Positions 4,276 to 60,613 of a stretch of DNA of 64,000 bases are shown here, in pieces. Positions within the stretch are counted from its first letter, which is position 1. Each line of letters opens with the position of its first letter. The notes beneath the pieces were generated by a model. That model did no database searches. It was not told the origin of the DNA and saw nothing but the letters and a program-made list of their open reading frames with translations. The translations under genes and the position numbers were made by a program. The stretch comes from an uncultured Candidatus Berkelbacteria bacterium (GTDB lineage Bacteria > Patescibacteriota > UBA1384 > UBA12157), in assembly GCA_903877885.1 (NCBI GenBank), contig CAIRFN010000011.1, positions 9,281 through 73,280 of the forward strand. Direction: 5' to 3'.

Positions 4276-4378
4276 AAAATGAGACACAAGTCCTAAAACG
4301 GCCGTAGACTGTCTCATTTGTCTCATTTTCAGGTCAGAAATAGAAAAAATGAGACACAGACCGTCAAAACTGTCTCAA
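4276..4378. repeat. Iteron-like repeats built from a TGAGACA / TGTCTCA inverted-repeat unit
   Basis: AAAATGAGACACAAG...ACTGTCTCATTTGTCTCATTTT and AAAAAATGAGACACAGACCGTCAAAACTGTCTCAAAT. Two direct copies of an inverted-repeat unit plus a tandem TGTCTCATT duplication, in the divergent intergenic region. Confidence 0.45.
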
Positions 4379-4480
4379 ATCTTGCCATTCAACCTGAAAT
4401 CCGCTACAATTGGAGAAGATACTGAAAGGGGCAAAAGGTTCTAGACCGACGTGTCCCGCCATTAAAATAGGGAGGTGGAA

Positions 4481-10129: not shown

Positions 10130-11866
10130 ATGTTACTGGATGAAGTTGAGCAAGTTAAACAAAGAATAGATATTGTCGAATTTATTTCGTCGTATTTAAC
10201 TGTGAAAAAGGCGGGCGCCAATTATCGAGCGCTTTGTCCTTTTCATCATGAAAAAACGCCGTCAATGATGATTTCGCCAGATAAACAAATTTTCAAATGC
10301 TTTGGCTGCGCGGCCTCTGGGGACGTAATTTCGTTTCTGATGAAAATGGAAAATTTAAATTTCCGCGAAGCCTTGGAGGTTTTGGCCGCTCGTGCTGGTG
10401 TAGAATTAGTCAAGAAAACGCCGGATCAAATTCAGGCTCATCAAGAAGAAGAAAACCTAAAAGCCAGACTTTATAATTTAAATATGTTGGTGGCCCGGTT
10501 TTGGCAGAAAATTTTACTCGATCATCCGGTTGGCCAAAATGCTTTGGAATATTTGAAATCTCGCGGTTTAACTATTGAAACAATTAAACTTTTTTTACTT
10601 GGTTATGCGCCGGGAAAAATTTCGCTTTTGAAATGGTTGTCGCTTAAAAATTTTACAGAAAATGAAATTCAAGAATCTGGTAGCCCAGATCGATTTTTCA
10701 AACGGATTGTTTTTCCAATTACCAATCCGTTGGGCCAAGTGATTGGTTTTACTGGACGAGCGACCGAATTTGGTCAGGAGCCAAAATATTATAATTCACC
10801 GGAAACCAGTATTTTTCACAAAAGCCGAACGCTTTACAATTTGGAACGAGCTAAAGTTAGTATTCGTCAAAATCAGGCGGTGGTGGTAGTTGAAGGTCAG
10901 ATGGATGTGATTAGTTCTTATCAAGCCGGCGTTGAAAATGTGGTGGCAACTTCGGGCACGGCTTTAACCGTTGATCATTTGCAGATTTTGGGCCGATTTG
11001 TTCAGACAATTATTTTTGCTTTTGATACTGATAATGCTGGACTGACAACTCAAAAAAAAGCTTACGAAATGGCGATTGCTCAAGGCTTGAATGTCAAAAT
11101 GGTGATCATTCCGCCACCTTACAAAGACCCTGGCGAGTTTTCGATTGCTTCGCCTGAATCTTGGCAAAAAGCGGTTCAAAATGCGATTCCGGTGGTCGAT
11201 TGGTATTTTAATTTGGTTTTTGGTCCGAATATCAAAAATACCGATCAGTTAACATCGATCCAGAAAAAAGAAATTGCCAAAGAACTTTTACCGATTATTA
11301 AAAAGATACCAGACAAAATCGAACAAGCTCATTATGTTGGCGTTTTGGCGCGCAAATTAAAAATCGCTGAAGAGGTCATATTTAACAGTTTAAATAATGT
11401 TATCGATAAGAAACCGGACAAAAATAACAAAGAACAGACCGAAAATCAAAAAGCCAAGCTGACTGATGAAGCGATTTTGGTCGGACTTTTGACCTTGGCG
11501 CCAAAAAATATTGAAAAAGCCTCATTAGTAGTTAAGACTGAAGATTTGCCAGAGGATTTGAAACTGCTTTACAGCAAGCTATTAACCTGGTACAATGATA
11601 AAAGAACAGATAAACTGGGTGAGTTTTTGAAATCAAAACTAAAAGATAGCGATTTTCAAAAATTGGAGGGCTTACAAATTGAGCTGGAAAATGACTATCC
11701 GAATATTAACCAAGTCATTGATGATTTGCTGGCCAATTTCCAGGCTCACAAACAAGAAAAAATGAAACAATTCTACGCCGAGGCTATTGCCAAAGCTGAA
11801 GAAGACGGTGACCGGGAAAAATTAAAACAACTGGTTAAGGAGTTTCAAAATGCCATCAGTCAATAA
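10130..11866 (+). CDS. dnaG: DNA primase
   Basis: CHC2 zinc finger ([30 protein letters not shown]) and Toprim region ([19 protein letters not shown]). Classic dnaG-rpoD arrangement. Confidence 0.92.
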
Positions 11867-14291: not shown

Positions 14292-15350
14292 ATGAATAGC
14301 AAAAACGGTATGTCTATTGGCATCGATCTTGACCAAGCATGGCTTGAATATGCCGAGCAAGGTAAGATCATTAATCAGTTTGTGGCTTATTTCGATGACC
14401 CCGCCGGTTGGTGGAAAACTAATGATATTTTGGAAACCGGAGTAGTTATTAAAGAAGGTAAACCGGTATATTATGCTAAAAATATTACTCAAGAAATAAT
14501 TTTCGAAACCAATAAGCCGATAAAAAGTTTGAATCAAAATCTGGAGGCGGTTTTTATGCCTCACCGCCGGCTTCGCGCCACTGCCGCCAATCCAAAGAGT
14601 CCTGGCCCGCAGGCAGCACCGTCGGATGATCCGCTAAAGTGCGGCTTTTATTGCCAAGATCCTGGTCATCAACATAGTCTATTACCAAGAACGCCGTTAG
14701 CCCTTTTGCCGGTTCTTAACCGCCGTTATTGGGCGATTTTCTATAATTTCTCACCTTTTGAAAAAAATGGTCATTTTATGCTCTTGCCGGTCAGGCTCCA
14801 AGGTGTACATATTGTTTTGACTCACTATCTTCAACATATGGAACTTGGTTTTCTTCAAGATGCGATCAGTTTAATTAGAAAATGCCAAAACTTGCTCATT
14901 TTCTTTAATGCTATTGGTGCTGGCGCCAGTCAAAATCATTTTCATTATCAAGCAATTGCTCATCAATTAGGTAGTTTAGCAATTGAACATAGTGACTCTG
15001 ATCATCCGATTCGGTTCATTGATTTTGATATCAACACTCCTGGTCTGGCTGAAATTGTTTTTAAACATATTCAATTCATCAATCAAACTTTTAGCGGTAA
15101 AACCAGTTATAATTTGATTTTTACCAGTCAAAAACTCTATCTTATACCGCGGGAAAAAGATCATGAAGTTTTAAGAGTTAACAATGATTTTATTACCTGT
15201 TTTGGTGCGGTCGAAGTTGCCGGTCGGCTGATTTGCACCGAAGAAAACCAATTTAACAATGTAACCTCCGAACAATACATTGCCGCTCTTAAGACCTTGT
15301 CTATAAGTAAAGAAAAAATCGACTTTATTAAAGCCGAAAGCATTAAATAA
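14292..15350 (+). CDS. HIT-superfamily-like protein with an HxHxQ motif (GalT/Apa2-like nucleotidyltransferase/phosphorylase branch)
   Basis: Motif GAGASQNHFHYQAIAH (H-x-H-x-Q), as in GalT/ATP-adenylyltransferase-type HIT enzymes. RBS GAAGGAG. Functional assignment is tentative. Confidence 0.4.
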   Translation: MNSKNGMSIGIDLDQAWLEYAEQGKIINQFVAYFDDPAGWWKTNDILETGVVIKEGKPVYYAKNITQEIIFETNKPIKSLNQNLEAVFMPHRRLRATAANPKSPGPQAAPSDDPLKCGFYCQDPGHQHSLLPRTPLALLPVLNRRYWAIFYNFSPFEKNGHFMLLPVRLQGVHIVLTHYLQHMELGFLQDAISLIRKCQNLLIFFNAIGAGASQNHFHYQAIAHQLGSLAIEHSDSDHPIRFIDFDINTPGLAEIVFKHIQFINQTFSGKTSYNLIFTSQKLYLIPREKDHEVLRVNNDFITCFGAVEVAGRLICTEENQFNNVTSEQYIAALKTLSISKEKIDFIKAESIK

Positions 15351-15361
15351 ATTATTAATAT

Positions 15362-15392
15362 TACCCGTTAGATTTGATCTACGGGTTTTTTA
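15362..15392 (+). terminator. Rho-independent terminator after the 14292..15350 gene
   Basis: ACCCGTtAGAT-ttg-ATCTaCGGGT hairpin followed by TTTTTT. Confidence 0.5.
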
Positions 15393-15425
15393 TTACAAAA
15401 AAAGACGGCGATAAACCGTATTTTT
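15392..15425 (+). repeat. 34-bp direct repeat, copy 1 (ATTACAAAAAAAGACGGCGATAAACCGTATTTTT)
   Basis: Second copy at 15805-15838 with one mismatch. The two copies flank a roughly 380-bp segment containing an 84-aa minus-strand ORF. Confidence 0.5.
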
Positions 15426-15780: not shown

Positions 15781-15804
15781 ATTGCCAATGGGTTCTCTTT
15801 TGAT

Positions 15805-15838
15805 ATTACAAAAAAAGACGGCGATTAACCGTATTTTT
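15805..15838 (+). repeat. 34-bp direct repeat, copy 2
   Basis: ATTACAAAAAAAGACGGCGATTAACCGTATTTTT. It lies immediately left of the tRNA-end-like 10-mer at 15852. Confidence 0.5.
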
Positions 15839-15958
15839 TGACAATTAGTTGCAAAGCTCCCTCTAGCCGATATATTCAGAACGAAATACTATGATATTAT
15901 TGTTAATTTAGGCAAAGAAATTGAACTATTAAAATTAGATCCTTGCTTCGACTTTTAG

Positions 15959-16144
15959 CTAATTAGTCTCCTGACGTCGCTTTTGGACCATTTCATAATC
16001 TTCTTTGGTCATTGGTTTGTAGATTAGTTCTACAAGCCGAAGCAGTTTTGTGGCCAACTCTAAAGCGTCTTGATCGTTTAGATCTTTTCCGAACTCTTTT
16101 TTGTAAATCGCCTTAAATTTGTCTAGCGATTCTTTTGAAATCAT
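15959..16144 (-). CDS. Hypothetical small protein (divergent from the island operon)
   Basis: 61-aa ORF, predicted all-helical. A 57-bp divergent AT-rich spacer separates it from the 16202 gene. Confidence 0.35.
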   Translation of the reverse strand: MISKESLDKFKAIYKKEFGKDLNDQDALELATKLLRLVELIYKPMTKEDYEMVQKRRQETN

Positions 16145-16201
16145 AAAAATCCTTGTGTAATTACTATTTTACTGATTATATTATAAGAAAGAGTAAATAA
16201 A

Positions 16202-17479
16202 TTGAAAGATGTAATGAATAAACCTCGGAAAATAACAGATGATGAAATTCAATTTCGCAAAAATGATCTTGAACGGAAGTTTAATTATGCTTATAAACAA
16301 ATGGACGAAAAAAGCTTTTTTATTGGTGTTTCTGATTATACGAATGCAATAGAAAAATCAGGCCTATTAAGATATTTAGTCCACATATCCTTGATTGATA
16401 ATCAATTTAAGATAACGAAGCCAATAGATGATTTATCAATTAAGACGGTCGAAGAAACTATGGACACGTTCAACCAACTTATAAAGATTATGAAGGACAA
16501 CAGGATCGATGAAGCGGATTTTCAATATGAAATCGATCAATACCGCGGATATTCAGAAAATAAAATACAAATGTTAAGTGGATTTGGTAATCAAGCAACT
16601 TCTACAGCCGAAACCGTAGCCAGCCTTTGCTGGTCATTACATCAAAAGGGCTATACTGATCTAGTCAAAAAATTTGCGGAATATAGCCGTGACAAGACAA
16701 TGATTGTTGATTTTTCAGTATCTGAATCTAACAAAACTTTGAGTAAAATGATTAAAAGATTAGAGGAATACCAAATATTCGCCTTATGGAGCGATTGGAA
16801 TAAGTTGACGCTAGTTTATGTTTCAATTTACCTAAGCGATGACTTCTCGGTTTCATATAGAGAAAAAAATGAACAAGCTAATCTGCATAACTTTATAGGA
16901 CTTGTCCAGGAAATGAAAGAAATATTAGGAATCAAAAAGCTAGCGCCCTGGTTATCCCAGTATAGATTTTTTAAAATGGAAGAATTTAAACGGTATTTGG
17001 ACCGAATCCATAATCATATCTTATCTGAAATAGATCGTTTTAGTTTGACCAAAAGAATAGAAAAAAAATCAGATAGCTTGATAAAAACCATTGTTATACC
17101 GAAAGAGAACCCTGACTTTTGTTATTTTGATGGCAGAACCTTCAAGCTACAAACATCTGATGGCGGTATAAAAGCAATAAATTTTTCGCCAACTAAAACA
17201 AAGGGTTCTGATACATATTATCTATTCTCGGCGCTGGTCAATATATTAAAGCAAAAAGGTGAAAGAAAAGATAATATTTGGTTTTTTGCAGATATAACAA
17301 TGGAAGAAATAACAAAACGGGTTGCCGAAGAATTTAATGAGAATAAAGACAGAGATTGGGTCAAAAATACCAAATCTAATCTCAAAAAAGTTATTCCTGA
17401 TGATTTGTTGTCTAATTATATTCAAATTTCTAACTACCAATCGAAAGGTTATAGTTTTGGACTAAAGTTGCCAAAATAG
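16202..17479 (+). CDS. Hypothetical protein (island cargo)
   Basis: 425-aa ORF, first gene of the co-directional cassette. No motif recognised. Confidence 0.5.
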   Translation: MKDVMNKPRKITDDEIQFRKNDLERKFNYAYKQMDEKSFFIGVSDYTNAIEKSGLLRYLVHISLIDNQFKITKPIDDLSIKTVEETMDTFNQLIKIMKDNRIDEADFQYEIDQYRGYSENKIQMLSGFGNQATSTAETVASLCWSLHQKGYTDLVKKFAEYSRDKTMIVDFSVSESNKTLSKMIKRLEEYQIFALWSDWNKLTLVYVSIYLSDDFSVSYREKNEQANLHNFIGLVQEMKEILGIKKLAPWLSQYRFFKMEEFKRYLDRIHNHILSEIDRFSLTKRIEKKSDSLIKTIVIPKENPDFCYFDGRTFKLQTSDGGIKAINFSPTKTKGSDTYYLFSALVNILKQKGERKDNIWFFADITMEEITKRVAEEFNENKDRDWVKNTKSNLKKVIPDDLLSNYIQISNYQSKGYSFGLKLPK

Positions 17480-17632
17480 TTTAATTACACCAAAAATACA
17501 CCAGGCGTAGCTTAGGCGTAAAAGAAACTTGTATTTTACAGGTTTCTTTTTTTGTTGCAGGACTATTGACATTGTTTCGGTGTAAAGCCCTGATTTAACT
17601 TGATTTATGCGTAATGCCTAATTAGGTAACAA

Positions 17633-17854
17633 ATGAATAAAGTAAAAGAACCACAACTAAACCCTTACGAAAGGCTTTATGGTAGAAAGCTTTCCGAAGA
17701 TAAGGTGGCCGAGATGAAAACTAATCTCATCGGATTTTTTAGTTTGCTAATCGAAATAGATAGAGAAAATCACATTGTTAACCAAGAAGAAAATAATTTA
17801 ACAAAAGGAGTAAACAATGACCCACAAAAAGAAACTGGACCAGTCCAGTACTAA
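17633..17854 (+). CDS. Hypothetical small protein
   Basis: 73-aa ORF. It overlaps the next gene, which is a pattern of tight coupling in this cassette. Confidence 0.3.
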   Translation: MNKVKEPQLNPYERLYGRKLSEDKVAEMKTNLIGFFSLLIEIDRENHIVNQEENNLTKGVNNDPQKETGPVQY

Positions 17855-18578
17855 ACCACCTATTACGCCAGAAAACGCACAATTAGCCATACAAACACCT
17901 GTCAATCCAGCCACTCCCCCTCTTAGTAATGAAGCAAATAAACTTAGCCCACAGGATTTAAAAATCATAAATGATGTTAAAACTACGGGCGAACATCAAA
18001 TACCGAGAATAAATAATAATGATATTCAACAAATAAATGATATGGGGGTTCATCAGGTTAAAGATAACAGTCCTATTGTATATGATAAAGGTTCTTTGAC
18101 CCATTTTGCCGAAACTGTTGGTAGCCCAGAAAAATCAGTGCATTTAAGTCCGGCTGAAACTGAACTTGTAGTCAGTAATCCAGATGATGTTTTGCCTAAT
18201 TTTTTTAAAGGTGGATCGAACTCATATTTATATGTTAAAAAAACTCCACAAAACACATTGTCAATCGTGGAGGTTTTAGATGATGGGAGTAAATTGCGTG
18301 TCAGTCACGGCGGTTTTAAAACAACTGAGAACTATTTGAAACCGATGGAAGAATTAAAAAAATCTATCTTGGAGGACGGCGGATCCCTCATTGGTCAGCC
18401 TGGACAAAGTCCAGTGATTAACCCTCAAAAGGGTACTGCCGTGGTGAGCCTTGCCACTAGTCAAGATAGATTATCTAATCCAAGTATCCCACAAAAAGAA
18501 GGTCTTGTCAATCCTCCCCCTCTTAGTAATGAAGCAGGGGGGATAAGGCCAGGAGAGGTGGGAGGAGTTAAAAAATGA
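17817..18578 (+). CDS. Hypothetical protein with internal PPLSNEA repeats
   Basis: 253 aa. NPATPPLSNEANKLSP near the N-terminus and VNPPPLSNEAGGIRPG near the C-terminus. Confidence 0.45.
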   Translation: MTHKKKLDQSSTKPPITPENAQLAIQTPVNPATPPLSNEANKLSPQDLKIINDVKTTGEHQIPRINNNDIQQINDMGVHQVKDNSPIVYDKGSLTHFAETVGSPEKSVHLSPAETELVVSNPDDVLPNFFKGGSNSYLYVKKTPQNTLSIVEVLDDGSKLRVSHGGFKTTENYLKPMEELKKSILEDGGSLIGQPGQSPVINPQKGTAVVSLATSQDRLSNPSIPQKEGLVNPPPLSNEAGGIRPGEVGGVKK

Positions 18579-18892
18579 ACATAACCGAAGTTCAAATTAT
18601 ACCAATTAAACCGAGTGATGGTTTGGTCGGGTTCGCCAGTTTGGTTTTAGATGGCAAAATCTTTCTTGGCTCGATCGGGGTCCATTCAAGACTGGACGGC
18701 AACGGCTACAGAATCACCTACCCCACCAAAAAGGTCGGCGACAGGAACTTGAATATATACCATCCCATCGATCGGGATTTATCTTCAGCCATCGAAACGG
18801 CAATTTGTAACAAATTTAAAGAAGTAATGGAAAAAAGTAATGATCGACACAATAGCTTTAACCCTGAATCAGGACCAGTACAAGATTTTTGA
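18575..18892 (+). CDS. SpoVG-family protein
   Basis: ITEVQIIPIKPSDGLVGFASLVLDGKIFLGSIGVHSRLDGNGYRITYPTKK...IYHPIDRDLSSAIETAI aligns with B. subtilis SpoVG ([44 protein letters not shown]...DIAHPIN...KIQDAVL). Confidence 0.6.
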   Translation: MNITEVQIIPIKPSDGLVGFASLVLDGKIFLGSIGVHSRLDGNGYRITYPTKKVGDRNLNIYHPIDRDLSSAIETAICNKFKEVMEKSNDRHNSFNPESGPVQDF

Positions 18893-19949
18893 CCACAGTA
18901 GATTTAGATCAACTGATTATATAGGGAAAAATAGCTTTACTAAAAAAGTTTATAACCCTGATTTTAACAAAGAAGGATATAAGCCAAGAATCACTCTTTA
19001 TAATAGATTCGGGACCGAACAGATTCGAATTGAATTTTCGGCTCCTAAAATCCTCTTTGGCAATAATTTTGACGAACTGGATGAAAGCGATTTTGATAAT
19101 CTAGTGGCTAAACTCTATAACAATTTATGGGAAATGAAGATCAGAGCATATCCCGATGATTTAAAAAAAGCCAATGTTTCCAAAATAGATTATTCGAAAA
19201 ACTTTGTTTTGGGAAACGGCGTTAAAACTTGGCAAATTCTCAATGAACTCAGTAAAGTTGACCTTACCAGATCAAGTGATATTGAAGAGGTAAAATATCG
19301 TAATAAGGGGCATTGCTTGCATTTGAAGCATACCAACTCACTCGATTTTGCCGTTTACGACAAATGGGCCGATTTGGTTAAGGCTAAAATAAGCGACAAA
19401 CGATCAATTGAAAAAGATAATAAATTACAGCTTAATTTACTGGATTTAATTGAAGACACGAATAAATTGGAGATTATCAGAATTGAAGCAAGGCTCGTTG
19501 ACAGGCAGAAAATCAAAGACATTTTGAAATTATTCTCTTTTAATGATGATCTTACTTTTCAAGGATTATTCAAAAAACATATTGCCAGGGCGGTCCTCGG
19601 CAAGTACTGGCACGAAATAGCCGATGGCTTGGATATTGCAAACATAAGAGACTATGAAGAAATCGATTTGATAAGTTTAATATTGGAATCTGATAAGATG
19701 ACGGCGAACCAAGCCCTCAGGATAGCCTCTGTGATAAATATTTACCAAAAGGGTCAAGTTCTACAGTTAAAAAATCTATTGAGTTCTCACGGCTATGACA
19801 GGTCATTTAGCGAACTTGCAAAGCTTATTCGAACCTTAGATTTGCCAAAAAATTGTAAATATAAAGCCATATTGGGTATTGGCCAGTCTATCGAAGAGAT
19901 GAACAAAACAAGCCTAAAGAATCATCCAAAATTAAAATTTGCAATGTAA
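18840..19949 (+). CDS. Putative rolling-circle replication initiator (Rep_trans-like)
   Basis: N-terminal alternating hydrophobic motif MIDTIALTL, an IRIEFSAPK block and FAVYDKWADL. These resemble the Rep_trans family, whose hallmark is a conserved YDK. Assignment is tentative. Confidence 0.35.
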   Translation: MIDTIALTLNQDQYKIFDHSRFRSTDYIGKNSFTKKVYNPDFNKEGYKPRITLYNRFGTEQIRIEFSAPKILFGNNFDELDESDFDNLVAKLYNNLWEMKIRAYPDDLKKANVSKIDYSKNFVLGNGVKTWQILNELSKVDLTRSSDIEEVKYRNKGHCLHLKHTNSLDFAVYDKWADLVKAKISDKRSIEKDNKLQLNLLDLIEDTNKLEIIRIEARLVDRQKIKDILKLFSFNDDLTFQGLFKKHIARAVLGKYWHEIADGLDIANIRDYEEIDLISLILESDKMTANQALRIASVINIYQKGQVLQLKNLLSSHGYDRSFSELAKLIRTLDLPKNCKYKAILGIGQSIEEMNKTSLKNHPKLKFAM

Positions 19950-19983
19950 ACTAAAGTAAAGTATTATAATAACAGAGGTAATA

Positions 19984-21951
19984 ATGGAAAATAACGAAGA
20001 ATTTTACACATCACAGGAAATTGCCGATAAATTGAAGATCAATATAATGACCGTTTATAGACATATTAATTCTGGTAAATTGAAGGCTATAAAAACAGGT
20101 AAAGATTTCAGGGTTCTCAAGTCCGATTTTGAGGACTATTTACAGAGTAATCAGCAAAGAAATGTTCTTGAAGAAAAAGACAATAAAATTCTTTTTTTAG
20201 AAAAAACGATTGCAAAACTTAAAAATAACATCAAAAAAGAAAGATACGGGTTGAATTGGTTTGATGTCCCTGAGGCCTTCGAGGATGATGTCGAGCATAA
20301 ACTTCCAATATTAAAGGAAGACCAAAAAATGGCGATTGGAACTGAAGATGACCAACCAACTCATATACTTATCGAGGGTGATAATTACCACGCACTCACT
20401 TGCTTAAATTATACTCACAAGGAAAAGATTGATATTGTTTACATCGATCCACCGTATAATACTGGCTCGGATGGATTCAGATACAAGGACAAGAGGATAT
20501 TGGATAAATTTCCCGATGGAACTGATGTACCCGTTGATCATCCATTTAGACAATCTTACTGGCTGTCTTTTATGAAAAAAAGATTGGATTTGACATACGA
20601 TTTAATGAAAAAAGATGGTCTATTAGCTGTCTCTATCGATGACAACGAATATGCCCAATTAAAACTATTATTAGCAGAAAAATTCGGCGACTCAATCAAG
20701 ACAATTGTAGTGAAAATGAGCGAAGCCTCTGGTCTGAAGATGGCCTCTATTAAAAAATCTGGCGGTATACCCAAATATAAAGAGTACTTACTCCTAGCGA
20801 TGAAGGATGGAATTAGAAACCTATCATTCGACTTTATCCCTAAAGAAATTTGGGATAATGAGTATAATCTTATACTTGAAAATTTTTCCTATAACGACTA
20901 CCAGGAATATCTTAATATATTAGATAACAATAATCTCGCTCCTAAAACCGCAACCGAACATCTTGATGAAATTTTCCAAAATGTAAAGATTGGCTCTCTA
21001 GCGGCCACCTTAAAGTCATTAGAAATTCCAAAAAATGAATTATCTAAATGGCTTACAGATAATAGTTGGCGAATTTGCCGCAGCGCAGCTTCTAGTTCAG
21101 TTAAGAGACTCGCTGATGTCAAAAGGATGGATAGTAAACAACAGATTTTTTCTGTAAATTCTGTAAGAGATAATATCCTCTATCTTGTCAAAGGCGACTA
21201 TGACGATGATTCAGCAAGTCCTCGTGTACAATTACTCCTCGCAATCGATAATTTAAGTGTACATCCAGGCGACCTATGGACAGACATAAAAACTACTGGT
21301 CTTGAGGCAGAGGGTGGTGTAGAGTTTAAAAATGGTAAAAAACCATTAGCTCTGTTAAAAAGAATTATATCAAGCATTAACGATAAAAACGCCGTTATAC
21401 TAGATTTTTTTGCTGGTTCTGGGACAACTGGCGAAGCAGTAATGGAGCTGAATCATAAAGATAAAGGAAGAAGACAATTTATTCTAGTTACTAATAACGA
21501 GGGTGGCATTATGACTGAAGTATGCCATCCAAGAATGGTTAATTCTGTCAAAAAGTATAATGGCTCAATAAAATATTATAAGACTGCCTTTGTTGGGGAA
21601 AATAACATTTTAAATTCAACTGACCAGGATAAGCTAGAGTTAGCCTATAATGCTGGTGAGCTCTTGGCAATTGCAGAAAATACTCTTTACGAACAAAAGA
21701 AAAATGAATTTTACCAAATATTTAAAGATAATAATCGCTACACTGCAATATATTTTAGGGAAGAAATGGATAAATACGATGAATTTATTCAGGAAGTTAA
21801 AAAATTAAAAGCTGACGAAATATCCGTTTATATCTTTAGCTGGGAATCTGATGAAACAATATACGAATTTGAAGATATGAAAAATATTAGAATAAAAACA
21901 ATTCCTCAACCAATAGTAGAAATTTATAAGCAAATATATAATTTGGTATAA
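19984..21951 (+). CDS. mod: Type III restriction-modification methyltransferase (Mod) with N-terminal excisionase-type HTH
   Basis: N-terminal HTH (YTSQEIADKLKINIMTVYRHINSGKLKAIKTGKDFRVLKSDFEDYL). MTase motif IV (IDIVYIDPPYNTGSD) and motif I (ILDFFAGSGTTGEAV). It sits immediately upstream of a helicase-type restriction subunit. Confidence 0.8.
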   Translation: MENNEEFYTSQEIADKLKINIMTVYRHINSGKLKAIKTGKDFRVLKSDFEDYLQSNQQRNVLEEKDNKILFLEKTIAKLKNNIKKERYGLNWFDVPEAFEDDVEHKLPILKEDQKMAIGTEDDQPTHILIEGDNYHALTCLNYTHKEKIDIVYIDPPYNTGSDGFRYKDKRILDKFPDGTDVPVDHPFRQSYWLSFMKKRLDLTYDLMKKDGLLAVSIDDNEYAQLKLLLAEKFGDSIKTIVVKMSEASGLKMASIKKSGGIPKYKEYLLLAMKDGIRNLSFDFIPKEIWDNEYNLILENFSYNDYQEYLNILDNNNLAPKTATEHLDEIFQNVKIGSLAATLKSLEIPKNELSKWLTDNSWRICRSAASSSVKRLADVKRMDSKQQIFSVNSVRDNILYLVKGDYDDDSASPRVQLLLAIDNLSVHPGDLWTDIKTTGLEAEGGVEFKNGKKPLALLKRIISSINDKNAVILDFFAGSGTTGEAVMELNHKDKGRRQFILVTNNEGGIMTEVCHPRMVNSVKKYNGSIKYYKTAFVGENNILNSTDQDKLELAYNAGELLAIAENTLYEQKKNEFYQIFKDNNRYTAIYFREEMDKYDEFIQEVKKLKADEISVYIFSWESDETIYEFEDMKNIRIKTIPQPIVEIYKQIYNLV

Positions 21952-21953
21952 AA

Positions 21954-24332
21954 ATGAAGCAATTTAACCCATTAGAATTTCAAAAAGAGACCATAGATAA
22001 ATTATCGAAAGTTTTTGTTGAGACTTGGAAAAAAGGTGGCAAAAAACTCCCCATTGTTTTGAAAGCCCCTACTGGTAGCGGTAAAACTTTTATGGTTGCT
22101 AATTTTATCAGAGGTTTAAATCATTTACCCCAATGGCAAGAAGATAAAGCGTTTATCTGGATTACTTTTAGCGATGATCTTGCTATGCAAAGTAAAGACA
22201 AATTTGCCGAATACTTTGAGAACAATTTAGAGAACAATTTAGTTACTGTCGATGATATAAACAGAAGAAAGCTATTTAACAATGATATTATCTTTCTAAA
22301 TTGGCAAAAAATAGTTTCAAAAAGTGCCGAGACTCGGGTATTAAGGAGACCAGAAGATGAAATAATGCGAAAAGAAAGAGGGGCTTATTGGGAAGACTTT
22401 ATTGACGGAACTCAAAACGATAATCGTGAAATAATTCTCATTATTGACGAAGCTCATAAGAATAAAGGTACAATTCTTGCAAAAGAGATTATTGACTATA
22501 TAGATCCAAAAATCATTTTACATATTACTGCTACACCAGATAAAGAAGATGAACTTGAAGCCTACAGAATGGGTTCAATGGTTGAGGTTAATCGTCCGCA
22601 GGTAGTAGAACAAGGTCTTATCAAAGAAAAAATCGTGGTTCAGACAGAAGAAGATTTATTGAGCCACAAAGGGCAAGATCTTGATAAAGTATTACTTGAT
22701 TTAGGTGTTAAGCGGAGAGAAGAATTAAAGAAAGAATTTAAAGAACTTGGCAAAGATGTAAACCCTTTAATGTTGATCCAGCTACCAAACGATGACAACA
22801 AATTGATTGAAATGGCCAAAGAAACAAAAGAATCGGTTGTAAGTGATTACCTAAAAGAAATTGGAATACCTGATAAAAAAATTGCCAAATGGTTTGATGG
22901 TAGACAAGAGAATATGGAGTTAATAACTGAAAACGATAGTGACACCGACTATATGCTCTTTAAGCAGGCGGCTGGAACTGGTTGGGACTGTCCTCGTGCT
23001 TCCGTTCTCGTAATGTTCAGAGAGATTAAATCTGATAAATTTTACACTCAAACAGTTGGCAGAATACTCAGAATGCCAGAACCAGAGCTTAAAGAAGACT
23101 ACAAAAATAATGAAAATTTAAGAATTGGCTATCTTTACACGAACTATAAGAGGAATCAAGTTGAATTGCCTGATCAATCAGGCAATAATAAGCCATATAT
23201 TCATTTCTCATATCCGAAAGAAGGTGTTAAGAACATAGAGCTACAATCCGAATATATTTCAAGAGTTGATTATGGGGATATTCCAAAATCCTTTAAATTT
23301 CAGCAAAGCTTTATCAAATCAATAAACAAATATTTTGATATAACGGATAACGATATACTTGGGAAAGCCCAAAAAAAATTAGAAAACCAAAAAATAGATC
23401 TTGACGGTAATCTAACCAATAAGATTATCGTTAATGCCGAGTTTAAAGATTTCGATCAATTGAACTACGAATTTAACAAAGAAGGTAGCGATCTTGAAAT
23501 GGAAATGTCTACTAATGACGTTGAAAAAACGTTTAATTATATTTGCTATCAATTACTACAAGAACAGGAAAATAATGAAGCAAAATACACCAATATCGCA
23601 AGGTCTTGGAGTACTCTAAAATCCGCTATAAGAATTTGGTTAAAGAAAACCATTAACGAAGATAGTGATTATTTCTATCGGGTATTCGTTAAAGATATTA
23701 ATAAAGGGGCTTCTAGCAAGTTTAGACCAGCAATAACGAAAGCTTTGATTGATTTTAAGCCGATAGCAAAACAAATAATTGATGAAAAAAAGATTTTGCA
23801 CGAGCAAAAAGAAGCTCCTTTGTTTAAAATCCAAGATGAATATTCATTTACTGAAGACTATACGGATGAAGATCAGAAGCTATGTGTTCTGGATAAGTTT
23901 TATATCTTAATAGATGATTACAAGGGCAAAAAAAATGAGCTTGATTTCAAAAATTATATAGATAGTCTGGATAATTCTATTACTTGGTGGTTTAAAAATG
24001 GTGATTATGGGAAAATATATTACGCCTTAAAATATATGGACTCCGTTGATCAGAAAGAGGCTCTTTTCTATCCAGATTGGATAATCTATTTCAAGGATGG
24101 CAGAATCGGTATATTTGATACAAAAGATGACGAGACTGCTAAATCTCAAGAAACTAAAGATAAGGCCGTTGCGCTTTCTGAAAAAATAAAAGCTCTTGGC
24201 AACAAATATGTTGGTGGTATCATAGTGAAGAGTTCTGGGGTTTGGTATTTTAATGATTCGGTTAATTATGAGTTTGTAAAAGGAAAAATTGAACAAGATA
24301 AAAATTGGAAAAAATTTGAAGGAATATTATGA
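21954..24332 (+). CDS. res: Type III restriction enzyme, Res subunit (SF2 helicase-nuclease)
   Basis: Helicase motif I LKAPTGSGKTFMVANF and motif II IIDEAHK (DEAH box), 792 aa. Start is 3 nt after the mod stop. Confidence 0.8.
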   Translation: MKQFNPLEFQKETIDKLSKVFVETWKKGGKKLPIVLKAPTGSGKTFMVANFIRGLNHLPQWQEDKAFIWITFSDDLAMQSKDKFAEYFENNLENNLVTVDDINRRKLFNNDIIFLNWQKIVSKSAETRVLRRPEDEIMRKERGAYWEDFIDGTQNDNREIILIIDEAHKNKGTILAKEIIDYIDPKIILHITATPDKEDELEAYRMGSMVEVNRPQVVEQGLIKEKIVVQTEEDLLSHKGQDLDKVLLDLGVKRREELKKEFKELGKDVNPLMLIQLPNDDNKLIEMAKETKESVVSDYLKEIGIPDKKIAKWFDGRQENMELITENDSDTDYMLFKQAAGTGWDCPRASVLVMFREIKSDKFYTQTVGRILRMPEPELKEDYKNNENLRIGYLYTNYKRNQVELPDQSGNNKPYIHFSYPKEGVKNIELQSEYISRVDYGDIPKSFKFQQSFIKSINKYFDITDNDILGKAQKKLENQKIDLDGNLTNKIIVNAEFKDFDQLNYEFNKEGSDLEMEMSTNDVEKTFNYICYQLLQEQENNEAKYTNIARSWSTLKSAIRIWLKKTINEDSDYFYRVFVKDINKGASSKFRPAITKALIDFKPIAKQIIDEKKILHEQKEAPLFKIQDEYSFTEDYTDEDQKLCVLDKFYILIDDYKGKKNELDFKNYIDSLDNSITWWFKNGDYGKIYYALKYMDSVDQKEALFYPDWIIYFKDGRIGIFDTKDDETAKSQETKDKAVALSEKIKALGNKYVGGIIVKSSGVWYFNDSVNYEFVKGKIEQDKNWKKFEGIL

Positions 24333-25831
24333 AAGCGGTAATTCTTGCCAGGGTTTCGACCAAAGAGCAAGAAGATCAGGGTCATTCTTTACCCGCTCAG
24401 ATAAGAAAGCTTGAAGAATATGCGGAAAAGCATAATTTTGAGGTAGTTGAAACGTTCTCTTTCTCGGAAAGTGCTGGCAGTAAAATCAGAAAAAAGTTTG
24501 AAGAGGTTCTTAAGTACTTGAAGCAAAATAAAAGCGTCAAGGTTCTTTTATGCGAGAATGTGGACCGATTAACTAGAAACTTTAAAGACGCTGTCGATAT
24601 AGACGAAATGCGTAAAAATAACGGTCTAGAGGTCCATTTTGTTCAAGATGGCTTCTTTTTAAATGCCAAAGCCACAGGCAATCAAATGTTTATGTGGGAA
24701 GCAAAGGTCTTTATTGCCAAACAATACTTGAACAGATTATCTGATGATGTGAATAGGTCTATAGATCAAAAGCTTAGAAATGGCGAATGGCCGACGAAAG
24801 CCCCAATCGGCTACCTGAACGAAACATTAGAAGACGGCAAAAAAGATATATTGCCCGATAGTACTAGAAGGCGTTATATCAAAAAGGCTTTTGAATTATT
24901 CGCTACTGGCAGTTATAGCGTGCCGAAAATCGCTCAAATTCTTGAAGCCGATGGTTTAAGAAATAATAACCCTCAAAAATCGGTTGTGCCTTATAGCCAG
25001 ATGGATATAATCCTGAAGAATCCATTTTATTACGGCGAAATGATTTATAAAGATCAGATCTGGCCCCACCATTACGAACCAATAATCGAGAAATGGCTAT
25101 TTGAAAAATGCAATTCGGTCCGAAATGGTCGGTCCAATACTCTAATTAAATACGCCAGCAAGCCTTTTGTTTTTCGAGGGCTGATCAGATGTGGCGAATG
25201 TGGCTGTATGATCGGTAAAGACCCGAAGAAAGGTTTTAATTATTGTGTTTGTAATCAATTTAAGGGTAAGCATAAAACAGAAATAGTACTTGAAGAAGAC
25301 CTTATTGAGCAAGTTAAAGACGTTTTTCGTAAAATCAGAGTACCTATGGACGTACTTCAGGATCTAAAATTATCATTGGAAAATAACCTTAAGGCCGAGC
25401 AAGAATTTTATGAAACTTCAATTGATCAGTTCAGGAAAGAATACGACGAAAACAAACGAATATTAAAGAAATCTTACCTCGACAATGCCAGAGGGCGTAT
25501 TACAGACGACCAATATGATGAAATCTTCGAAGAAATATCAGCCAGACAAAGCTTCTTAGACAACCAAATGCAAAGGCATACAGAGGGCAACAAAGCGTTT
25601 CTTATGGCCTGTACATACCTTATCAAGCTAACAAACAAAGCACTAGAAATATTTGAAAGTTCGAAACCAGAACAAAAAAGACAACTCATCACCTTCATAC
25701 TTTCGAACTTGAAATTAGAAGGCAAAAAGCTGTCTTTTACTCTGAACGAGCCCTTCGACGCCATCGTCGAATACTCTCAATCAGTAACAAAGCTCCCCGG
25801 GCCCGATTCGAACGGGCGACCGTCTCCTTAA
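24329..25831 (+). CDS. Large serine recombinase (resolvase/invertase N-domain plus recombinase and zinc-ribbon domains)
   Basis: N-terminus MKAVILARVSTKEQEDQGHSLPAQ carries the catalytic Ser context. C-terminal Cys cluster (CGECGCMIG...CVCNQF). 500 aa. The last 13 codons or so are antisense to tRNA-Asn. Confidence 0.85.
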   Translation: MKAVILARVSTKEQEDQGHSLPAQIRKLEEYAEKHNFEVVETFSFSESAGSKIRKKFEEVLKYLKQNKSVKVLLCENVDRLTRNFKDAVDIDEMRKNNGLEVHFVQDGFFLNAKATGNQMFMWEAKVFIAKQYLNRLSDDVNRSIDQKLRNGEWPTKAPIGYLNETLEDGKKDILPDSTRRRYIKKAFELFATGSYSVPKIAQILEADGLRNNNPQKSVVPYSQMDIILKNPFYYGEMIYKDQIWPHHYEPIIEKWLFEKCNSVRNGRSNTLIKYASKPFVFRGLIRCGECGCMIGKDPKKGFNYCVCNQFKGKHKTEIVLEEDLIEQVKDVFRKIRVPMDVLQDLKLSLENNLKAEQEFYETSIDQFRKEYDENKRILKKSYLDNARGRITDDQYDEIFEEISARQSFLDNQMQRHTEGNKAFLMACTYLIKLTNKALEIFESSKPEQKRQLITFILSNLKLEGKKLSFTLNEPFDAIVEYSQSVTKLPGPDSNGRPSP

Positions 25832-25864
25832 CAGGGAGTCGCTCTACCGCTGAGCTACCGGGGA
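25793..25864 (-). tRNA. tRNA-Asn (anticodon GTT)
   Basis: Manual fold of the reverse complement: acceptor TCCCCGG/CCGGGGA, D-arm GCTC-AGCGGTA-GAGC, anticodon arm ACTCC-CTGTTAA-GGAGA, variable CGGTC, T-arm GCCCG-TTCGAAT-CGGGC, discriminator G. CCA is not encoded. Confidence 0.85.
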
Positions 25865-25899
25865 GCTTTATCACCAATTGATTTTAAAACGCTGAGCTA

Positions 25900-60536: not shown

Positions 60537-60613
60537 GGGCGTGTAGTTCAGCTGGTTAGAGCGCTTCTCTTATAAGGAAGATGTCGATGGTTCGAGTCCA
60601 TCCACGCCCACCA
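60537..60613 (+). tRNA. tRNA with anticodon TAT (Ile, UAU type), CCA encoded
   Basis: Manual fold: acceptor GGGCGTG/CACGCCC, D-arm GTTC-AGCTGGTTA-GAGC, anticodon arm CTTCT-CTTATAA-GGAAG, variable ATGTC, T-arm GATGG-TTCGAGT-CCATC, ACCA 3' end. Confidence 0.7.

Follow-up and report, generated by a model that had tools for sequence, protein, structure and literature searches.

Integrative mobilizable elements (IMEs) of less than 20 kb are found in Firmicutes, where they encode a serine recombinase, a Rep_Trans (MobT) protein or both (PMC5704250; PMC5357655; PMC7563843). Among the known IMEs, those with a serine recombinase disrupt dispensable protein genes by inserting into them, whereas tyrosine integrases use the 3' ends of genes (PMC5704250). 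The SSV-type ('type I' or 'suicidal') tyrosine integrases of archaeal viruses and plasmids, which are described as restricted to archaea, are split upon integration into two inactive pseudogenes (PMC7253208). Here we analyze a stretch of 64,000 nucleotides of contig CAIRFN010000011.1 (hereafter the window), in which positions 15862-25797 very probably represent a site-specific integrative element of 9,936 bp in a Patescibacteria chromosome, belonging to a family that shares a large serine recombinase (LSR), a replication initiator (Rep) and a SpoVG-like protein.

The element resembles IMEs in its small size, its own recombinase, an initiator or relaxase of the Rep_trans type, very short flanking repeats and the lack of a transfer apparatus, and the cargo of IMEs can also include restriction-modification (R-M) or toxin-antitoxin genes. 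Unlike IMEs, its family uses tRNA gene 3' ends as targets and restores these genes, has the attachment site attP inside the LSR gene, includes an obligatory SpoVG-like gene, resides mainly in Patescibacteria and other small-genome lineages, and encodes a Rep that is too divergent for the Pfam Rep_trans model. With SSV-type integrases it shares an attP located inside the integrase open reading frame (ORF), a tRNA target, the partitioning of the gene between the two element ends upon integration, and an att segment that is translated, so that the protein sequence co-varies with the target. The enzyme is not an SSV-family tyrosine recombinase but a bacterial serine recombinase; only its last 31 or so codons, past the confidently folded domains, are detached, whereas the catalytic and DNA-binding domains all stay in one ORF. 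This resemblance is one of analogy only.

In its domain organization the enzyme follows the serine integrases of phages and genomic islands (Bxb1, phiC31, A118, TP901-1, SPbeta SprA, SCCmec CcrAB), which combine a resolvase domain, a recombinase domain, a zinc ribbon and long coiled-coil helices, act on attP and attB sites with a short core identity and are encoded next to attP at the element edge. To our knowledge, these phage and island enzymes (Bxb1, phiC31, A118 and others) target protein-coding genes or intergenic sites and not tRNAs. Myxophage Mx8, a tailed phage of a myxobacterium with a 49-kb genome, has its attP in the 3' end of the integrase gene (intP/intX), and its integration alters the integrase C-terminus; the window element is similar in the position of attP and differs in that the Mx8 enzyme is a tyrosine integrase. 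A large survey of LSRs does not mention tRNA targets (PMC10083194). In the literature searched on serine recombinases and integrative elements of Patescibacteria and Saccharibacteria, we found no description of the present family, nor did the searched literature describe an LSR whose reading frame passes through the crossover site. As a single locus the element is of an ordinary kind, namely an integrative island with R-M cargo; it is of interest because it exemplifies a widespread family, undescribed in the searched literature, of tRNA-targeting LSRs with attP in the recombinase gene and a SpoVG/Rep_trans-like module.

Element ends and the empty site at tRNA-Asn

The most direct evidence for an insertion comes from two metagenome contigs of sibling samples (L007 and L012), which were retrieved by the exact identity of an encoded host protein of 352 aa (window 14292-15350). 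Both contigs carry the empty site: position 15861 is directly followed by 25798 and the 10-mer CAAAGCTCCC is present once, the junction reading ...GACAATTAGTTGCAAAGCTCCCCGGGCCCGATTCGAACGGG... and the longer stretch ...TTTTTTGACAATTAGTTGCAAAGCTCCCCGGGCCCGATTCGAACGGG..., and after the 352-aa gene and a small neighboring ORF comes the polysaccharide deacetylase gene, which in the window is found on the right side of the tRNA. Their flanks are 100% identical to the window on the left and 99.8-99.9% on the right, and the occupied site is present at 100% identity in further contigs from the same sample series. In addition, the 156-kb scaffold L009 terminates exactly at 15861, as would be expected if the assembly graph forks at a polymorphic junction. 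The element represents a discrete insertion, present in some and absent from other members of one near-clonal population. The initial annotation, made from the sequence alone, had proposed a mobile element at tRNA-Asn and named an empty site as a suitable check, and the sibling contigs now supply that site from the same population.

The 10-mer occurs exactly twice in the window, at 15852-15861 and 25788-25797, as the initial annotation had seen; about 0.10 matches per window are expected by chance, and two or more copies appeared in 0 of 100 shuffles. This 10-bp identity at the 3' end of tRNA-Asn bounds the element, and the tRNA is regenerated intact. Counted with one core copy, the element can equivalently be placed at 15852-25787; its true ends fall slightly inside the 15850-25866 that had been proposed. 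The tRNA-Asn belongs to the host DNA. The flanking DNA contains dnaG and rpoD, and all named RpoD relatives at 75-83% identity come from Patescibacteria, which assigns the chromosome, by sequence, to an ultra-small bacterium of this group (the Candidate Phyla Radiation, CPR).

Insertion also alters the surroundings of the tRNA gene, as its native terminator hairpin is shifted 9.9 kb away. A second copy of this hairpin lies at 15405-15419, and a 40-nt direct repeat (15386-15425 and 15799-15838, 93% identical), each copy of which carries a terminator-like hairpin on the minus strand, is situated on either side of a host minus-strand ORF of 84 aa. We considered this repeat as a second att remnant and rejected it, because it is a duplicated terminator hairpin; the empty-site contigs have the two copies as well, so these do not belong to the element. 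The leader and trailer of tRNA-Asn (window 25768-25884) can form a long helix that prolongs the acceptor stem, which is continuous in the occupied state (-59.8 kcal/mol) and contains a 2x2 internal loop in the empty state (-53.0 kcal/mol). The right end of the element mimics the tRNA 3' trailer, and the trailer that it supplies pairs better than the native one. No terminator-like sites were found on the minus strand inside the LSR 3' end; as the tRNA is at the same time separated from its terminator, we speculate that read-through from the tRNA antisense to the LSR gene is possible.

The recombinase gene and its attachment sites

The LSR matches Pfam Resolvase (3.2e-22, residues 3-154), Pfam Recombinase (4.7e-11) and the integrase family phrog_95 (9.5e-64). 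An R-V-S motif that is invariant in the LSR alignment appears in the window protein as ARVSTKEQ, and the zinc-ribbon cysteines CGECGC...C..C are visible in the sequence. With an N-terminal catalytic resolvase domain that has a serine nucleophile and a C-terminal recombinase domain, zinc ribbon and coiled-coil, the protein is classed as a large serine recombinase on the basis of these matches. The annotation had identified the LSR as the last gene, with its 3' end over the antisense strand of tRNA-Asn, and this is upheld by the Resolvase, Recombinase and Zn_ribbon_recom matches and by the end of the ORF at 25831. Given this end, the final 39 or so nucleotides of the gene form the antisense of a tRNA segment that begins at the 3' acceptor strand and extends to the anticodon loop, in which the TAA stop is located; the last 11 codons and the stop of the integrated form are antisense tRNA-Asn.

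What had been overlooked is that the LSR gene runs on beyond attP, into 15862-15957. When 25797 is connected with 15862, as it would be in a circle, the LSR frame gains 31 codons and becomes an ORF of 521 aa, which ends one base before the stop of a convergent gene of 61 aa. Because the frame is continuous across attP, integration detaches the last 31 codons and leaves them at the opposite end of the element. The first 25 or so nucleotides of the detached part, from 15862, also form the P' arm of attP.

The closest relative, L014, whose LSR is 78% identical and which is also inserted at tRNA-Asn, encodes LADIFRTQYYDTIRNLYYEIKLLKQEPCFDF in frame at its left end and uses the same stop. A comparison of these tails gives 15 identical codons, 9 with synonymous differences only and 9 with nonsynonymous ones; nucleotide differences at codon positions 1, 2 and 3 number 6, 5 and 15, and the other frames are filled with stops. 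The codon-position pattern, the shared stop and the closed alternative frames indicate that the tail is translated sequence. The motif [LIV]xDx[FL]RTxYY recurs in the reconstructed tails of elements at Asn, Gln, Arg, Gly and Ala tRNAs, and it is contiguous in a minority of database LSRs, which are un-split (P0021, P0025, P0074, P0053 and others). To judge from these alignments, elements with different tRNA targets conserve the detached tail at the protein level.

In place of the detached codons, the integrated gene acquires codons that are antisense to the tRNA. Among full-length LSR homologs, 57 of 114 end in a D-S-N tail that represents the translated antisense of the T-loop GATTCGAAC, and most of the others stop a few codons past the acceptor-stem antisense. 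At the core, the usual codon is TGG (Trp), which is antisense to an encoded CCA; the window has AAG at this place, as the tRNA-Asn gene there does not encode CCA. In the AlphaFold model of the un-split homolog P0067, long helices span residues 340-444, all confidently folded domains precede the crossover point and the tail has a predicted local distance difference test score (pLDDT) below 50, which made the model uninformative as a test of tail packing on the LSR. Since the folded domains all lie before the crossover, the integrated form of the LSR probably stays catalytically competent.

The attachment sites themselves (Table 1) are consistent with an enzyme of this class. The left arms of attP and attB agree without gaps at 17 of 20 positions, and the right arms have GCCGAT and TC(A)GAAC in common only with a shift of 4-5 nt. 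The annotation had taken this degenerate likeness for a long decayed att repeat, a candidate that we reject on the grounds that the ungapped similarity is confined to the left arm; the likeness fits the arms of serine-recombinase att sites instead. In the structural model of the A118 integrase, the distal motif is reportedly expected to be shifted outward in attP relative to attB, and the shift in the right arms of the window would, by analogy, resemble the P'/B' arms of LSRs. The core of L014 comprises 7 bp, TGGCTCC, so the crossover should lie within GCTCC. Taken at the sequence level, the 10-bp identity core and the exact empty site fit a short attP x attB recombination with a 2-bp crossover. 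The attP arms of L014 form an imperfect palindrome (GTTCTAAAT...ATTTAGAAC), and the symmetry in the window is weaker (6/9 by eye).

Related elements, replication module and cargo

A scan for relatives of Rep, with one genome per species, yielded 161 loci, 80 of which were fetched for synteny. Homologs of the LSR number more than 1,500, with the nearest in Patescibacteria, and those of Rep 340, all of them unnamed. In 56 of the 80 fetched loci we found a collinear arrangement of a SpoVG-like gene, Rep, an optional small HTH_17 ORF, 0-6.7 kb of cargo and the LSR, and the family backbone also includes a small ORF of 73 aa and an unknown upstream protein family. The hosts are labelled as many classes of Patescibacteria, Omnitrophota, Babeliales, Vampirovibrionales and several metagenome-assembled genomes (MAGs) of Proteobacteria. 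An LSR lies downstream of Rep in 57 loci, and in 45 of these its 3' end extends over that of a tRNA which is in every case encoded on the opposite strand, the targets being Gly(gcc) (20), Asn(gtt) (14), Gln (4), Arg (3), His (2), Asp (1) and Ala (1).

One family member, at the least, is a closed circle: the contig of L102 has 9,589 bp with an exact terminal overlap of 30 nt, which gives a circle of 9,559 bp, and it contains no tRNA, an un-split LSR of 535 aa and a Rep that is split across the contig ends. Replication after excision, as envisaged by the annotation, is supported by this circular relative at the level of the family only. A second un-split LSR is found in L101 (11.6 kb), which has the same layout of SpoVG-like gene, Rep, HTH_17, Type III mod-res and LSR. 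Rep had no match among the plasmids of PLSDB, nor in a tblastn search of 50,697 GenBank phage records, and IMG/VR contained one locus only. In L019 (1516-3162 and 3034) a second, distant LSR located upstream reads over a hybrid junction and enters the tail that belongs to the element downstream (...SQLWLP before the junction and LVYKFRTEYYDSIL... up to the stop after it), which shows two elements in tandem at one tRNA.

Some relatives show peculiarities in their own right. Locus L017, like L019 a case of tandem or nested arrangement, has two left-end-like copies (~385 and ~1660) with a SocA_Panacea toxin-antitoxin module between them. The target tRNA-Asn gene of L014 (11468-11765, minus strand), which ARAGORN missed, has a group I intron in its anticodon loop (11510-11720; Rfam RF00028, 85.4 bits, E 2e-22), and a tRNA-Arg(tct) gene (4378-4450, minus strand) is located inside the left end of this element, where the window element has the 61-aa ORF.

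The annotation had recognized a Rep_trans-like protein, and this stands for the fold; the sequence itself reaches only Phage_CRI, just under the cut-off, and gives no match to Pfam Rep_trans (PF02486). A Rep_trans fold emerged from fold comparison, the one approach that worked, and the protein also matches phrog_702, 'replication protein' (1.8e-7). The residues Y173-D174-K175 are invariant among the homologs, and Y173 of this YDK motif would fit an active-site tyrosine. The SpoVG-like protein, rightly named by the annotation, scores 35.8 bits against Pfam SpoVG (cut-off 29.6) over the full length of the model, and 33.6 bits against the NCBIfam equivalog PRK13259, whose cut-off is 108. As far as these scores and its gene context indicate, it is not an orthologue of the housekeeping septation regulator, and its gene belongs to the mobile backbone; within the family this gene is always directly upstream of Rep and overlaps it. 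The protein probably acts as an accessory nucleic-acid-binding protein in replication.

Between Rep and the LSR lies the R-M system, whose assignment to Type III in the annotation agrees with the PADLOC matches. Mod matches PADLOC MTase_III (2e-59) and Pfam N6_N4_Mtase (3.7e-29) and contains DPPY and FAGSG motifs, by which it is classified as a Type III, beta-class N6/N4 methyltransferase. Res matches Pfam ResIII (5.6e-21) and PADLOC REase_III (2.1e-15), and its C-terminal region contains a PD...DxK-like motif (PD...DTK; YPDWIIYFKDGRIGIFDTK). As an SF2 helicase with a predicted nuclease motif that is encoded directly downstream of mod, the two genes abutting at 21951/21954, Res has the features of a Type III restriction subunit. 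The N-terminus of Mod carries an HTH_17 domain of the excisionase type; in most relatives this is a separate small backbone gene, which in the window element is fused to Mod.

At least 400 nt separate Rep from the LSR in 28 of the 56 collinear loci (range 0-6.7 kb). The proteins encoded in this slot include N6_Mtase (11), Eco57I (7), MmeI (5), Methylase_S (5), N6_N4_Mtase (4), ResIII (4), HSDR_N (3) and C5 methylase (2), together with some HigB toxins. Judged by these domains, the cargo between Rep and LSR, where present, consists mostly of R-M systems (Type I, II, IIG and III). The Res of the window shares 61% identity with its counterparts in L101 and L022, at 36% identity for Rep and 35-47% for the LSR, whereas L014, the nearest backbone, carries a different R-M system, which is Type I/IIG-like. 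Similar Res proteins on distant backbones and different R-M systems on near ones show that cargo is exchanged between backbones. Type III mod-res cassettes occupy the same slot in L022 (3967-8183) and L101 (5825-9888), one of them in a MAG labelled Omnitrophica.

One observation on res was discarded. In a 445-kb scaffold the gene is split into parts of 428 and 277 aa, which could be taken for heterogeneity or phase variation; the split is an artefact of a 10-N scaffold gap at window 23120-23128. Three independent contigs break at the same 8-10 nt (AGAATTGG) inside res (window 23120-23130), a stretch that is uninterrupted in the window and in L002. There is no visible repeat at this site, and a variant in a subpopulation is possible.

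Mechanism, alternatives and further features

In the mechanism that we propose, the LSR would recombine attP, located inside its own 3' end, with attB, formed by the T-arm and acceptor region of tRNA-Asn and its trailer, by means of a 2-bp crossover inside GCTCC. After excision Rep may nick an origin, and the circle would replicate by the rolling-circle mechanism with the SpoVG-like protein as cofactor. The Type III R-M system could defend the host and at the same time stabilize the element by post-segregational killing, and the HTH_17 domain fused to Mod may serve as a regulator or directionality factor. The full-length LSR of 521 aa, which is encoded by the circle only, and the integrated form of 500 aa with its tRNA-antisense tail may differ in activity.

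These steps can be joined into a wider reading, which we put forward tentatively and hold to be well short of probable. It describes a family, not reported in the searched literature, of integrative and replicative elements of 6-17 kb that is typical of Patescibacteria and reduced-genome bacteria, whose LSRs evolved to target tRNA 3' ends with attP in their own coding sequence, and in which integration switches between LSR isoforms and this switch serves as an intrinsic control of directionality. Transcription that runs on from the tRNA promoter in antisense might also contribute to this control. Among bacterial serine recombinases, the family would then be the equivalent of the archaeal 'suicidal' integrases, and it would occupy, with tRNA 3' ends, a niche otherwise held by tyrosine integrases.

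Several observations weigh against the interpretation given here. No attP junction or circular form of this element was found, and an exact-sequence look-up of the 521-aa circle-form LSR in a collection of 15 billion proteins was negative, which is a weak negative; empty sites alone are compatible with excision or with lineages that were never occupied. The match of Rep to Phage_CRI is borderline (21.2 bits, cut-off 21.7) and is shared by 3 of 42 Rep homologs, a profile search of Rep against the sequences of solved structures retrieved nothing relevant, and no replication origin or nick site was identified in the element. The Zn_ribbon_recom match of the LSR is under the cut-off (E 4e-4, 21.1 bits, cut-off 25.3), and the low pLDDT of the P0067 tail leaves a structural role for the tail unsupported. 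Some of the host labels in the family, such as the MAGs of Proteobacteria, may be binning errors, and domain and PHROG scans found no transfer machinery encoded by the element.

The last of these points is also what one would expect of a strict IME, in which the Rep_trans-like protein would be mainly a MobT-type relaxase that nicks an origin of transfer (oriT), transfer would rely on a co-resident conjugative or DNA-export system, and rolling-circle replication would be secondary. The element possesses the integration and excision module of an IME, with the LSR and defined att sites, and a Rep_trans fold is compatible with a MobT-like function: the Rep_Trans/MobT proteins of Tn916 and ICEBs1 are both relaxases and initiators of rolling-circle replication, and streptococcal IMEs carry Rep_Trans genes (PMC5704250). 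We nevertheless consider this explanation rather unlikely, in view of the fact that neither the window nor the related loci examined showed a coupling protein, an oriT or genes for conjugation, that Rep lacks relatives in PLSDB, and that the persistence of L102 as a free circle fits autonomous replication. Still less credence is due to a filamentous, inovirus-like prophage or satellite, with Rep as the analogue of gpII and the SpoVG-like protein as that of the single-stranded DNA-binding gpV. The size of about 10 kb falls within the inovirus range and both the weak Phage_CRI (G2P) match and phrog_702 point in this direction, but the element proteins include no pI/Zot morphogenesis ATPase, no small hydrophobic coat proteins and no matches to PHROG structural families, and the phage collections returned Rep only at the single IMG/VR locus.

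It is also improbable that the locus is a fixed genomic island that is no longer mobile, and that the empty-site lineage never acquired it or lost it by accidental deletion between the 10-bp repeats. Such an island would account for the missing circular junction, and integration does truncate the native C-terminus of the LSR. However, the structured part of the LSR is retained and all genes of the element are intact, the flanks of empty and occupied sites are 99.8-100% identical in one sample series, with one scaffold breaking exactly at the att core, and the architecture of the LSR-tRNA junction recurs at seven kinds of tRNA. The reading of the locus as a site-specific integrative element of the LSR/Rep/SpoVG-like family is the one that we retain.

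The family, for which no described counterpart in Patescibacteria turned up in the literature and in the plasmid and phage collections searched, offers exact ends, a replication module and a cargo slot. As this slot is occupied mostly by R-M systems, the family is a plausible route for the exchange of defense genes in Patescibacteria lineages. It also comprises dozens of natural LSR/attP/attB sets aimed at conserved tRNA sequences, which could be of interest as integrases for genome engineering. The notion of a self-splitting integrase, described for archaeal tyrosine enzymes only, is extended here to bacterial serine recombinases, and the question arises of what a state-specific C-terminal tail contributes to the directionality of serine integrases, which is incompletely understood.

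Table 1. Coordinates of the element, its attachment sites and adjoining host features in the window.
Feature	Position	Strand	Remarks
Host terminator-like hairpin	15818-15832	-	native terminator, which closely follows tRNA-Asn in the empty site
attL core, left copy of CAAAGCTCCC	15852-15861	+	predicted to contain the crossover; junction ...TAGTTGCAAAGCTCCCTCTAGCCG...
Detached LSR 3' end	15862-15957	+	31 codons and stop, LADIFRTKYYDIIVNLGKEIELLKLDPCFDF; in frame with 24329-25797 in the reconstructed circle
61-aa ORF	15959-16144	-	converges on the LSR tail; the element's ninth gene
425-aa protein	16202-17479	+	putative divergent member of the conserved family upstream of the SpoVG-like gene
Terminator-like hairpin	17520-17550	+	14-bp stem, after the 425-aa gene
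73-aa backbone ORF	17633-17854	+	kept upstream of the SpoVG-like gene in many family members
253-aa protein	17817-18578	+	PPLSNEA near both ends; weak PBECR3 nuclease-like match
SpoVG-like protein (105 aa)	18575-18892	+	Pfam SpoVG
Rep (369 aa)	18840-19949	+	putative rolling-circle replication initiator with Rep_trans-type fold
Type III Mod (655 aa)	19984-21951	+	N-terminal HTH_17
Type III Res (792 aa)	21954-24332	+	ResIII helicase
LSR, integrated form (500 aa)	24329-25831	+	element-encoded part to 25797
attR core, right copy of CAAAGCTCCC	25788-25797	+	tRNA discriminator, 3' acceptor end and 4-5 nt of trailer; junction ...CAGTAACAAAGCTCCCCGGGCCCG...
tRNA-Asn(gtt), host	25793-25864 (start 25792/3)	-	ARAGORN; Rfam 63.9 bits
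attB			...GACAATTAGTTG-CAAAGCTCCC-CGGGCCCGATTCGAACGGGC...; tRNA-Asn T-arm/acceptor region and trailer, the tRNA being the B' arm; junction ...TAGTTGCAAAGCTCCCCGGGCCCG...
attP (reconstructed)			...CTCAATCAGTAA-CAAAGCTCCC-TCTAGCCGATATATTCAGAACGAA...; junction ...CAGTAACAAAGCTCCCTCTAGCCG...

The remaining genes of the element are less readily interpreted. The annotation had counted nine co-directional genes; the run on the plus strand from 16202 to 25831 does exist but comprises eight ORFs (425, 73, 253, 105, 369, 655, 792 and 500 aa), and the ninth gene, that of 61 aa, is on the minus strand. Scans of domain and family libraries gave no convincing family match for the proteins of 425, 253, 73 and 61 aa. 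Look-ups retrieved no names for proteins of the window and no publication on the sample accessions. Weak homologs of the 61-aa ORF are present in two loci of the family, L049 (1e-8) and L072 (2e-6), and relatives of the 73-aa ORF occur for example in L014 (2e-19) and L019 (5e-11). The 425-aa protein matches L073:7626-9200 at 6e-10, a member of the family that makes up 45 of the 64 collected upstream proteins, so that its link to this conserved family appears to be transitive only; no domain was found in the family itself with Pfam and a hidden Markov model built for it. The PBECR3 match of the 253-aa protein (Pfam, E 6.9e-4) is under the cut-off, and an exact direct repeat of 23 nt within this ORF (17914-17936 and 18514-18536, 600 nt apart) encodes PPLSNEA.

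Outside the element, the window contains a single ORF of 9,471 aa (28.4 kb; 29935-58350, plus strand), located 4 kb to the right, which encodes a giant surface-type protein; in a sibling contig with the empty site it was called as shorter pieces with Laminin_G domains. A tRNA-Ile gene with the anticodon TAT, which is unusual in bacteria, was detected by ARAGORN and Rfam at 60537-60613 on the plus strand.

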